In this document: in pieces, positions 20,289 through 22,534 of the stretch
Layout of the letters: each line of letters begins with the position of its first letter
Position numbering within the stretch: position 1 is the stretch's first letter
From: Cytophagales bacterium
GTDB lineage: Bacteria > Bacteroidota > Bacteroidia > Cytophagales > JAAEPT01
Length of the DNA: 64,000 nucleotides
Assembly: GCA_965267335.1 (NCBI GenBank)
Contig: OZ253953.1
Span: 3,994,662-4,058,661, forward strand
Reading direction: 5' to 3'
Position numbers and translations under genes: made by a program
The notes under the pieces: generated by a model
Told to the model about the DNA's origin: nothing
Seen by the model: the letters and a program-made list of their open reading frames with translations, nothing else
The model's database searches: none

Positions 20289-21305
20289 ATGAAAAAATTC
20301 ATCATACCAGCCATTATTCTAACCGGACTAGTTTTAGTGTATACCAACTTCACCTTAAAAACCAACGGTTGGGATAAAGACACCCCGCTTGGCGATGTCC
20401 TAATCAAGTTAGGAGACAAGAAACCAATTCACTCTTTAAGTGGAGAACCGACCAAAGAACAAATCAAACAAGGTCGGGAATTAGTGACCAAAGGAGTGAC
20501 CAAAGGCCCTGATGGCAAAAAAACAAAAAGACAATCAATACACTTTGTGTGCACCGATTGCCATAACATCGTAAAGGAAAATCCGAATAATGGCGTAAAC
20601 TCCTCAGATGATCGTTTGAAGTATGCGATGGAAAACAAAATCCCATATTTGCAGGGGACCACATTATACGGCATAGTTAACCGTACCTCCTGGTACAATG
20701 ATGACTACTTAAAAAAATACGGGAAGTTAGTTGAGAGTTCAAGAGATACATTGGAAAATGCAGTACAGCTATGCGCTACTGTCTGTTCTCAGGGAAGAGC
20801 CTTTGAAGACTGGGAAATGGATGCTGTAATGGCTTATTTGTGGTCTATCCAAAATACTTTAGGTGATCTGAATCTTACTGACGAAGAAATGTCAAAGCTG
20901 AACAGTGCCGAACTTGGTAGCAAGCAGGATGATCTGATAAAAATGTTGAAGAACAAATATGTAACCGTATCGCATGCTACCTTCCTTGACCCCCATGATA
21001 AAGAAGGAAGACTGTACGGTGAAGACGGAGACCCGGACAAAGGGAAATTCATATATAAGAGCAGCTGTATGCATTGCCATCACCATAATGGGGTTACTGA
21101 ATTGAAGCTTGACCCTGCAAAAGTGACCATGCGTATGTTCAACAAAAACCTCAAGAAGGAAAACGACTGGAACATTTACCACATCGTACGTGAAGGAACT
21201 CATCCAATAGCCGGTTACAAACCTTATATGCCTCTCTATACTAAGGAAAGACTCAGCCCTTCCCAGGTTGAAGATTTGATTGCTTATATAAAGAGTCGGT
21301 TGTGA
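20289..21305 (+). CDS. periplasmic diheme c-type cytochrome
   Basis: It has a signal anchor and two CxxCH motifs (CTDCH and CMHCH). Confidence 0.7.
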   Translation: MKKFIIPAIILTGLVLVYTNFTLKTNGWDKDTPLGDVLIKLGDKKPIHSLSGEPTKEQIKQGRELVTKGVTKGPDGKKTKRQSIHFVCTDCHNIVKENPNNGVNSSDDRLKYAMENKIPYLQGTTLYGIVNRTSWYNDDYLKKYGKLVESSRDTLENAVQLCATVCSQGRAFEDWEMDAVMAYLWSIQNTLGDLNLTDEEMSKLNSAELGSKQDDLIKMLKNKYVTVSHATFLDPHDKEGRLYGEDGDPDKGKFIYKSSCMHCHHHNGVTELKLDPAKVTMRMFNKNLKKENDWNIYHIVREGTHPIAGYKPYMPLYTKERLSPSQVEDLIAYIKSRL

Positions 21306-22534
21306 TTTGTAGATTAATCATTCCTTTATTACTCCTCTCCTACAGCTATAAAACTAAGGCCCAGGAAATACCCGTACTTTACCCTGTGTTATACCCACTG
21401 GATTTCAGCAAAGAGGGCGAAAAAGAGTTCCAAAAACACCAAACGGAATGTGAGAGGATTTGGAAAAAACAATCCAATAGTGAAGAGCTAACTAAGGCTG
21501 AACAAGAATATGTCTATACATGCAGGGAAGTTGAACAAAGCTATTGGGAAGTCATAGATGCAGGATGCAGCTGGTATTGTGGAGGAGATCCTTACAAGAT
21601 TACGGCTTCTTCTTTTCTTCCAGCCAACAGTAAAATCAGCTACAAACCAGAAAATGCACATGATCTGGATTATGAAAGCGCTTGGGTAGAAGGCGTCAAA
21701 GGATATGGTATTGGCGAGTATTTACTTTACCACTTTAAAGGACATAGTCCAAGAATCAACACCATTACCATAGCCAACGGTTATGTAAAAAGTGAGTCCG
21801 CCTGGAGTAAAAACTCACGCGTAAAAACATTAAAAATGTACGTAAATGACACTGTGCATTCAATCCTAAATCTAGAGGATGCACGAGCAGACCAGGTTTT
21901 TGTTGTACCGCCAATTGGTAATGCCAGAAGTGAATCCGGGGCATTACTTGACACCACTGGATGGACGATTAAATTTGAAATTACAGGAGTCTATAAGGGA
22001 GATAAATACGATGATGTTGTAATTTCTGAGATTTACTTTGACGGGTTGGATGTCCATTGCCTTAGCGCTGGAACATTGATCACAATGGCCGATTCTTCAG
22101 AAAAAAAGATAGAATACCTACAAATTGGAGATGAAGTCTTGTCGTACATACCTGAAACCGATAAGTATGAACCCTCAAAGATTGTGCAGCTAGCTTCTGC
22201 AAATCACACACAATTGATGGTAATAAAATTCAGTAATGGAGCATCAATTAAATGCACGAAGGATCACCCATTTTTGTCGAATCAGGAGCACTGGCTTTCC
22301 CTTTCTCCTGACAAAACCACTGAAGCATACAACTACAATGAAGTCTATCAACTAGACACCACAAGCAATGTAATGTCATTCGGATTTCCCTATTTGCAAA
22401 TCAAATCTATTGATGAAATCACCTTTTATCAAAAGACGTATACAATCGTTAAGCTTGAAGAGGCGCAATCCTTCATAGCCAATGGTTTAATTGTAGGAAC
22501 TGAAGAACTAAGAATACAACTATCTTCGAAGTGA
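21302..22534 (+). CDS. secreted discoidin/NADase-type glycan-binding domain protein with a C-terminal Hint domain
   Basis: 410 aa. The GTG start overlaps the cytochrome gene's stop (GTGA). It has a signal peptide and a GCSWYCGG motif. The jelly-roll segment reads ASSFLPANSKISYKPENAHDLDYESAWVEGVKGYGIGEY...ITIANGYVKS...N.RVKTLKMY. The Hint blocks are listed in the next feature. Confidence 0.75.
   Translation: MICRLIIPLLLLSYSYKTKAQEIPVLYPVLYPLDFSKEGEKEFQKHQTECERIWKKQSNSEELTKAEQEYVYTCREVEQSYWEVIDAGCSWYCGGDPYKITASSFLPANSKISYKPENAHDLDYESAWVEGVKGYGIGEYLLYHFKGHSPRINTITIANGYVKSESAWSKNSRVKTLKMYVNDTVHSILNLEDARADQVFVVPPIGNARSESGALLDTTGWTIKFEITGVYKGDKYDDVVISEIYFDGLDVHCLSAGTLITMADSSEKKIEYLQIGDEVLSYIPETDKYEPSKIVQLASANHTQLMVIKFSNGASIKCTKDHPFLSNQEHWLSLSPDKTTEAYNYNEVYQLDTTSNVMSFGFPYLQIKSIDEITFYQKTYTIVKLEEAQSFIANGLIVGTEELRIQLSSK
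22058..22510 (+). other. Hint (Hedgehog/intein-like) autoprocessing domain
   Basis: Block A is C-LSAGTLITMADSSEKKIEYLQIGDEVLSY, with Cys at 22058-22060. Block B (TxxH) is CTKDHPF, at 22256-22267. The C-terminal block is YTIVKLEEAQSFIANGLIVGTE, which has no terminal HN plus nucleophile. Only about 10 residues follow. Confidence 0.7.

Follow-up and report, generated by a model that had tools for sequence, protein, structure and literature searches.

The gene described here encodes a 410-residue exported protein and lies in a 64,000-nucleotide stretch of a Cytophagales bacterium genome (GenBank assembly GCA_965267335.1, contig OZ253953.1, positions 3,994,662 to 4,058,661; hereafter the window, whose own numbering is used throughout). 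The protein joins a lectin-like domain to a C-terminal Hint domain of the bacterial intein-like (BIL) type, and it belongs to a widespread bacterial family with the layout of Hedgehog, namely an exported cargo followed by a terminal Hint that would break only the bond on its N-terminal side. Cleavage of the precursor by its own Hint, between His252 and Cys253, is very probable, and water is the favoured acceptor of the thioester that would be formed. The best clue to this site comes from natural relatives that have no Hint domain and end at the residue directly before the first cysteine of the Hint (Cys1). Hint domains are known for their roles in intein splicing, in the release of toxins and in the lipidation of Hedgehog. 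A published study of this Bacteroidota family was not found in our literature search, and the Hint-less sister group that ends just before Cys1 is what is new here.

A Family of Exported Proteins Ending in a Hint Domain

An earlier reading of the window, made from the sequence alone (the sequence-only reading), had proposed a Hedgehog-like architecture for this protein. Judged by the homologous sequences the layout is real, as it is common to more than 1,300 Bacteroidota homologues, and the residues for N-terminal cleavage are invariant in those aligned. A word-indexed search returned 1,312 homologues, and the best 120 of them (384–470 aa, 44–55% identity) were aligned. They come from Bacteroidota such as Aquimarina, Limibacter, Rapidithrix, Flammeovirga and Porphyromonas, as well as from many metagenome-assembled genomes (MAGs), and their names in the database are only "Hint domain-containing" or "NADase-type glycan-binding domain-containing". 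The junction D-V-H-C is present in 119 of the 120. All of them end in FIANGxxVG[T/V/I]E followed by 2–25 variable, non-conserved residues, and neither a His-Asn pair nor a domain after the Hint occurs among these 120 best homologues. A search that used only the Hint part as query, exhaustive and free of profiles, gave 2,517 relatives, of which the 150 best were examined; clustering of their near-full-length Hint units at 50% identity left 44 representatives of the G-x-E type. The Hint is the last domain in each of the 44, with 0–8 residues past the matched unit, and a discoidin domain is found in 38 of them, while the N-terminal parts of the other six consist of a YARHG domain (one), membrane-like segments (four), or a signal peptide and KGSVH only (one).

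These counts also bear on the idea that the protein is a pretoxin-Hint protein which has lost its C-terminal toxin. A PT-HINT match does exist, but it is weak (E 0.026; 15.2 bits, where the cut-off is 27.7), the searches brought up no relative with a toxin, and the 120 close homologues and the 44 diverse representatives all terminate just behind the Hint. A truncated toxin was rejected for this reason and is scarcely credible, so that the earlier statement that no toxin follows the Hint holds for the homologues inspected and does not describe a damaged copy.

The gene is rare and patchy in its distribution. A full-length match (36% identity) was obtained in only one of 40 relatives from its family or order, two more having the N-domain only, and in an even sample of 400 genomes across the phylum an N-domain homologue (E below 1e-8) was detected in seven. 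A secreted protein of 176 aa from Bacteroidales MAGs (P0183/P0389; L110–L112, 4001–4531) is made up of a signal peptide, KGSVH and a Hint of the G-V-E type; its cluster has 10 members, the longest of their contigs reaching 30 kb, and it has no neighbouring lectin gene. Since this protein has almost no cargo, a released Hint may be functional in itself.

Relatives without the Hint Domain

Genome searches brought up several relatives that lack the Hint. One of them, the G225 relative, shows 51% identity and ends ...EIYFDGIDVH-stop. Three divergent Hint-less forms likewise end in His, as DLIH, IHHH or LGAH (...FFDGLDLIH-stop in the G005, ...KFNGIHHH-stop in the G007 and ...EFEPLGAH-stop in the G207 relative), and the fifth, which is more distant, has ...ELDFE as its end. 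When the G225 protein served as a database query, 1,348 homologues were obtained with E below 1e-20, of which the best 119 were read: 114 are Hint-less and 216–267 aa long (about 255), and five carry a Hint and are 410–411 aa long. The last residue is His in 113 of the 114 Hint-less proteins, IDVH-stop being the end of 110, and the single exception ends ...IDVHQTD. The Hint-less C-terminus is therefore the −1 residue, directly before the position of Cys1. The N-domains of these homologues are 55–68% identical to the Hint-less query and at most 76% identical to those of Hint-bearing relatives. At six sequenced loci the next gene begins 3–135 nt past the Hint-less stop, so that no Hint remnant is present there, and shared synteny beside the Hint-less genes, sought for a mechanism of loss, was not found.

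In a tree of the N-domains the main Hint-less clade is nested within Hint-bearing diversity, and the divergent Hint-less proteins are placed elsewhere. A single clade of all Hint-less sequences was rejected by the approximately unbiased (AU) test (p 0.016), and union of the main clade with the G005 protein (L084), which as a database query returned just two matches, was borderline (AU p 0.048). Several independent losses within the main clade were not supported, since one clade is not rejected there (AU p 0.26). On a conservative reading the tree would point to at least two independent origins of the Hint-less state, each of which left a C-terminal His, and there were probably three. Cys1 is encoded by TGT or TGC in all 75 Hint-bearing loci, and a single change of this codon to TGA is a plausible origin of the Hint-less form; the claim goes only as far as plausible because the present stop codons are mixed (TAA, TGA and TAG).

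Because the DVH end is conserved even after the Hint has gone, it appears to belong to the mature lectin. His252/Cys253 would accordingly be the natural maturation site and the natural end of the lectin, and a Hint-less protein ending at −1 is what one would expect of a Hint that detaches itself there. The earlier suggestion of self-cleavage receives indirect support in this way, as the Hint-less relatives stop exactly at the predicted scissile His252. Such alleles act as a natural control, which points to the maturation site without an experiment.

Fold and Catalytic Residues of the Hint Domain

The Hint assignment was examined by profile and by structure prediction, as the sequence-only reading had recommended, and both agreed with it. 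The model TIGR01445 (intein_Nterm) matches aa 253–325 with 30.5 bits, above its cut-off of 24.5, and Pfam models of the Hint clan (AXH, Hom_end_hint, Intein_splicing, Hint, Vint and PT-HINT) match aa 253–345 below their thresholds. An AlphaFold2 model, built from an alignment of 25 sequences (mean predicted local distance difference test score 79, mostly 84–97 in the Hint part), confirmed that the predicted C-terminal domain has the Hint fold, a horseshoe of paired beta-strands. When its C-terminal 158 residues were compared with the PDB by Foldseek, the best match was 6y75, the BIL2 domain (E 2.5e-12, target TM 0.89, rmsd 2.2 Å, 25% identity), followed by the Ssp DnaB mini-intein, a BIL domain of C. 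thermocellum (2lwy) and Hedgehog (1at0 and 6tyy, E about 5e-6); the Foldseek probability was 1.00 for 6y75, 1mi8, 2lwy and 1at0. The family profile also recognizes 6y75, with an E of 1.3e-15.

The blocks quoted in the sequence-only reading are all found in the protein, as H252-C253-LSAGTLITMADSS, C318-T-K-D-H-P-F and S390-FIANGLIVGTE401. C253, T319, H322 and P323 are 100% conserved in the 120 homologues and in the 44 representatives, D321 is conserved at 98–100% in the same sets, and H302, W331, S333 and P336 are further invariant columns of the family alignment. The 120 family members were then compared, column by column, with 134 Hint units of the HN type. In both groups Cys1 of block A and the Thr, His and Pro of block B stand at 95–100%. 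The D-V-H at −3 to −1 (99–100%) is a property of the family only, and H302, present in 100% of the family, is His in just 29% of the HN-type relatives. At the C-terminal end the protein lacks the His-Asn, as had been stated earlier: Thr381 occupies the position of the block F Asp, G399-T400 align at the place of His-Asn, and E401 aligns at the +1 place. The family ends in G (98%), T/V/I (96%) and E (96%), where the HN-type relatives instead have H-N-K (...VHN-K). As far as conservation can tell, strict selection acts on the N-terminal half of the catalytic apparatus, and the half devoted to Asn cyclisation has been replaced.

The closest Hint relatives outside the family, at 28–33% identity, are tandem Hint arrays that end ...FFANGxLVHNK. 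The arrays P0121 (1,285 aa), P0122 (1,288 aa, from a Nanoarchaeota MAG) and P0156 contain 3–7 Hint units, the Nanoarchaeota protein having four, and each unit ends in VHNK with the next Cys1 directly after it. In P0156, from the foraminifer Nonionella, the Hint units alternate with ubiquitin, which is the BUBL type outside the ciliates. Within the family, a Cys adjoining the block B Thr (C318, 22253–22255) is present here and in 47 of the 120 homologues. A CxxH motif occurs in the C-terminal tail of 19 of the 120 and is absent from this copy despite its C318; 17 of the 19 CxxH tails co-occur with the Cys before block B, a count that takes no account of relatedness.

In the PDB the family profile also reached AXH domains, those of human ataxin-1 at E 1e-7 and of HBP1 at E 1e-4, and the Pfam AXH model scores up to 137 bits, against a cut-off of 33, on BIL arrays of the HN type (P0121, P0122 and P0132). 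The region of the AXH match is the N-terminal half of the Hint (22058–22360 in the window), and the motif W-x-S-x-x-P is common to both. On these similarities AXH has the appearance of an offshoot of the N-terminal half of a BIL-type Hint; our literature search turned up no paper that connects the two, although databases may already group both.

Proposed Processing and Its Alternatives

We propose that the exported lectin-like precursor would be processed by its C-terminal BIL-type Hint, which would fold after Sec export. Cys1 (C253), together with T319 and H322 of block B, would bring about an N-to-S acyl shift at the His252-Cys253 bond, and the thioester would then be resolved, most likely by water. 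Only this bond should be breakable because the C-terminal half of the splicing machinery has been lost, with neither the Asp of block F nor the terminal Asn and the His before it remaining, and the domain would thus operate in a Hog- or BIL-like mode in which the N-terminal bond alone is processed. The +1 residue of an intein is the one that attacks its N-terminal thioester. Glu401, which stands at this place, may assist hydrolysis, and its carboxylate could activate water. The expected products are a lectin domain of ~26 kDa (aa 22–252, ...D-V-H-COOH) and a free Hint of ~18 kDa, and the gene would work alone. Autocleavage at His252/Cys253, however it is resolved, is considered highly likely; cleavage followed by hydrolysis is given a rough probability of 0.55, water being favoured as acceptor since the Hint-less lectins work with a plain carboxyl end.

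Several points weigh against simple hydrolysis. A catalytically intact Hint is kept across most deep branches of the family even though one TGY-to-TGA change could drop it, which suggests a benefit beyond self-removal. BIL2, the closest characterised relative, is reported to transfer its N-terminal flank to lysine amines and not to water (PMC8616854). The invariant residues H302, D250, V251, H252 and E401 are not explained by simple hydrolysis, and a free catalytic Cys might be blocked in the oxidising periplasm.

Some of the same facts are accommodated by a single-turnover ligase similar to Hedgehog or BUBL, which is the main rival reading and which we consider possible, if doubtful. A nucleophile other than water would attack the His252 thioester and the lectin would become covalently anchored, the candidate acceptors being an amine of Lys or of a diamino acid (in protein or peptidoglycan), an amino-lipid, or the lectin-bound glycan itself with one of its hydroxyls or amines; the Hint-less relatives would then be soluble, unanchored lectins. 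The retention of the Hint in most lineages, when one nonsense mutation could remove it, is as expected for a ligase, as is the invariant D-V-H at −3 to −1, and BIL2 offers a precedent because it is reported to conjugate its ubiquitin-like N-terminal flank to the epsilon-amines of lysines without ATP (PMC8616854). BIL2 is also reported to be activated by Zn, for which H48 and H125 are the ligands (PMC8616854), and the invariant H302 lies two residues past the position of H48 in the HMMER alignment; being two residues apart, both would face the same side of the strand, which is suggestive at most. However, 113 of the 114 Hint-less homologues inspected end with a plain His, and hence the N-domain functions without a linkage made by the Hint. 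Unlike Hedgehog with its sterol-recognition region, the family has no region past the Hint for recognition of an adduct, the tails being variable and 2–25 aa long, and neither a conserved partner gene nor a conserved internal nucleophile is present. The wider picture, in which a one-shot ligase would parallel in bacteria the cholesteroylation by Hedgehog and the dispensing of ubiquitin by BUBL, and the Hint-less protein would be the free form of the lectin, is likewise put forward only tentatively. The loss of the C-terminal half of the catalytic apparatus would also suit a Hint that has ceased to be catalytic and serves, like the AXH of ataxin-1, as a module for binding or oligomerisation in a protein that stays full length. 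AXH domains, which do not autoprocess, are matched by the family profile at E 1e-7, and the Hint-only secreted protein is conserved in Bacteroidales. A non-catalytic Hint is nevertheless unlikely, as Cys1 and the Thr and His of block B are 100% conserved amid a Hint identity of ~46%, and the Hint-less stop exactly at −1 makes little sense if the mature lectin does not naturally end at this bond. Autocleavage resolved by water thus remains the preferred account.

The Precursor and Its Lectin-Like Cargo

The precursor consists, in this order, of a signal peptide, a helical segment with the motif CSWYC, a discoidin domain, the Hint and a short tail (Table 1). The signal peptide, the NADase-type discoidin module and the terminal Hint of the sequence-only reading are all present in the open reading frame, and the residues after the Hint, estimated at about 10, number nine.

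Table 1. Features of the Hint gene and of its upstream neighbour, by position in the window.
Feature	Position	Strand	Basis
Whole gene, 410-aa precursor	21302..22534	+	Open reading frame list; 100% identity to database entry P0001
Signal peptide, predicted Sec, MICRLIIPLLLLSYSYKTKAQ, aa 1–21	21302..21364	+	Read from sequence
Helical N-terminal segment aa 22–88, then C89-S-W-Y-C93	21365..21580	+	AlphaFold2, alignment
NADase-type F5/8 (discoidin) glycan-binding-type domain, aa 91–247	21572..22042	+	PF25302, NF047619
Predicted processing junction D250-V251-H252 / C253, GAT GTC CAT TGC	22049..22060	+	Homologue alignment
Hint (BIL-type) domain, aa 253–401	22058..22504	+	TIGR01445, Foldseek 6y75, family profile
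Block B, T319-K-D321-H322-P323 (TxxH)	22256..22270	+	Conservation
Block G-like end, F391-IANGLIV-G399-T400-E401	22472..22504	+	Column comparison with HN-type Hint units
Variable 9-aa tail ELRIQLSSK (E402–K410) and stop	22505..22534	+	Homologue tails
Dihaem cytochrome c gene upstream, 338 aa	20289..21305	+	PF00034, two CxxCH motifs

The N-termini of the homologues read as MK, a hydrophobic run and then ..AQ or ..SQ. The precursor has no lipobox and no C-terminal domain of the type IX secretion system, for which a tail of nine residues leaves no room, and the mature product is probably periplasmic or associated with the envelope.

The cargo domain was matched by PF25302 (NADase_transloc, "NAD glycohydrolase translocation F5/8 type C domain") with an E of 4.6e-51 and 173.3 bits against a cut-off of 27, and by NF047619 (NADase_discoid) with an E of 3.1e-39 and 134.1 bits against a cut-off of 38. 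In the PDB, the translocation domain of the Streptococcus pyogenes NADase (7ji1) was reached at E 3e-4 with the single sequence and at E 6e-8 with the family profile, a homology from which the cargo may bind glycans. In front of the domain, AlphaFold2 predicts helices at aa 37–58 and 65–71. C89, W91, Y92 and C93 of the CSWYC motif are invariant in the alignment, with Cys at both C89 and C93 in 120 of 120 sequences. Averaged over pairs of sequences, the discoidin domain shows 63% identity, the Hint 46% and the helical segment 35%, so that the Hint, its catalytic positions excepted, evolves faster than its cargo.

The same genome encodes one other protein with an NADase-type discoidin domain, a predicted lipoprotein of 501 aa on the minus strand at 4455660–4456049 (L082, open reading frame 1042–2547), which is 32% identical over aa 101–246 and has neither a Hint nor the CSWYC motif. 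In the Hint-less G007 relative (L085, 1354–1977) the place of CSWYC is taken by CFGCGDCSVYC (CxxCxxCxxxC), a spacing like that of ferredoxin-type cluster motifs, which is odd in an exported protein.

The Upstream Cytochrome and the Gene Neighbourhood

The GTG start of the Hint gene overlaps the TGA stop of the gene before it by 4 nt (TTGTGA), as had been seen earlier, and that gene encodes a protein with two CxxCH motifs (in FVCTDCHN and SSCMHCHH) and a PF00034 match of E 7e-12. The overlap, together with a terminator scan that gave no convincing terminator between the two genes, could be taken to indicate a functional operon in which the dihaem cytochrome c might, for example, exert redox control over the catalytic Cys. 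When six neighbours from the window were searched with tblastn against 80 related Hint loci with 6-kb flanks, none of them, whether the cytochrome, GT9, PolX, the glycosidase or others, was found at any locus. All-against-all clustering of the flanking open reading frames likewise gave no conserved neighbour, the largest cluster covering 9 of the 80 loci, which fits a self-contained module. The cytochrome is present in 7 of 12 genomes of the same family. In the two that were read it belongs to a separate three-gene cluster, between the gene of a small CxxCH lipoprotein and that of a ~290-aa protein, and in four further cytochrome-bearing relatives tblastn found neither a Hint homologue nor any other window neighbour within 1.5 kb of it. 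The operon was rejected because the cytochrome is missing at 80 of 80 loci and a conserved neighbour cluster is lacking, and we regard it as very improbable. The link to the cytochrome, which the sequence-only reading had left unexplained, is on the evidence of these loci incidental, a local accident with an overlap specific to this genome.

In the cytochrome flanks of the same-family genomes (L087, 1037–3318; L088, 593–2863), the lipoprotein is 123–127 aa long with one CxxCH, and the ~290-aa protein ends ...ISRPFKL. In this window neither of these usual partners adjoins the cytochrome, which has a GT9 glycosyltransferase gene upstream and the Hint gene downstream.

Significance and Comparison with Known Hint Systems

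The family provides a natural and experimentally easy system for the role of a terminal Hint in bacteria. Pairs of Hint-bearing and Hint-less proteins, with up to 76% identity between their N-domains, are suited to asking what the Hint adds, which could be control over maturation, an adduct at the C-terminus or some activity of the domain once released. The domain may also be useful to protein engineers as a natural intein-like module that would act on the N-terminal bond only, without Asn chemistry, and as a source of C-terminal thioesters.

By its fold, its Cys1 nucleophile in block A and the TxxH of block B, the protein belongs to the Hint superfamily, and it also belongs to the PF25302 domain family. 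It can be classed neither as an intein, an A-type BIL or a pretoxin-Hint protein nor with the Hedgehog/Hog group, as defining features of each are absent. Inteins need a terminal Asn or Gln, a penultimate His, a +1 Cys, Ser or Thr and a C-extein, whereas this protein ends in V-G-T-E and a tail. A-type BILs keep, without a +1 nucleophile, the C-terminal His-Asn that is missing here and that the 134 HN-type units, the nearest relatives by sequence, possess. The pretoxin-Hint (PF07591) precedes a toxin domain, whereas no domain comes after the Hint in any homologue inspected here. A-type and B-type BILs occur in secreted, non-essential bacterial proteins and autocleave without splicing (Amitai et al. 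2003 and Dassa et al. 2004, as summarised in PMC7765530). B-type BILs have the intein motifs except the C-terminal one and undergo N-terminal autocleavage (PMC7765530), a description which fits this protein, the two having been compared by description only. Secreted proteobacterial and myxobacterial proteins with a signal peptide, two conserved upstream Cys residues and a terminal Hint were noted by Burglin in 2008 (PMC2362128), so the concept of a secreted protein with a terminal Hint is not new. This group, also compared by description only, resembles the present family in layout and differs from it in taxa. Neither for the BILs nor for the Burglin group did we find a description with an NADase-type lectin cargo or with Hint-less alleles that end at the junction.

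The cargo has its counterpart in the N-terminal translocation domain of the S. pyogenes NAD+ glycohydrolase (7JI1), which is homologous to aa 91–247 and has a jelly-roll/discoidin fold of the carbohydrate-binding type. The streptococcal domain is fused to an NADase toxin whose delivery into host cells depends on streptolysin O, whereas the window protein has no enzyme attached and bears an extra CSWYC before the domain and the DVH end after it. The likeness to Hedgehog and Hog proteins lies in the signal peptide, the N-terminal cargo, the C-terminal Hint and the absence of a C-terminal Asn. Hedgehog breaks only the N-terminal bond, through a Cys1 thioester, and the same is proposed for the window protein. 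Hedgehog/Hog proteins, however, have a sterol-recognition region past the Hint where only nine residues are found here, and their junction is G/CF instead of DVH/C. The PF01079 (Hedgehog) model scores 19.9 bits, below its cut-off of 29.7, and the discoidin-type cargo, the bacterial host and the natural Hint-less alleles are further differences. By both sequence and fold, the best match is BIL2 from BUBL1 of Tetrahymena thermophila (PDB 6Y75/6TMM). BIL2 keeps the His-Asn (the deposited mutant is C1A-N143A), has ubl5 as its C-flank, and is cytoplasmic and eukaryotic, while the window protein has G-T-E in place of H-N-x, lacks a C-flank, is exported, and carries a lectin in place of the ubiquitin-like domain. 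Common to both are Cys1, the TxxH of block B, the W-x-S-x-x-P insert and the FxANG end, and BIL2 acts on its N-terminal flank through a thioester, which is the chemistry proposed here for the exported lectin.

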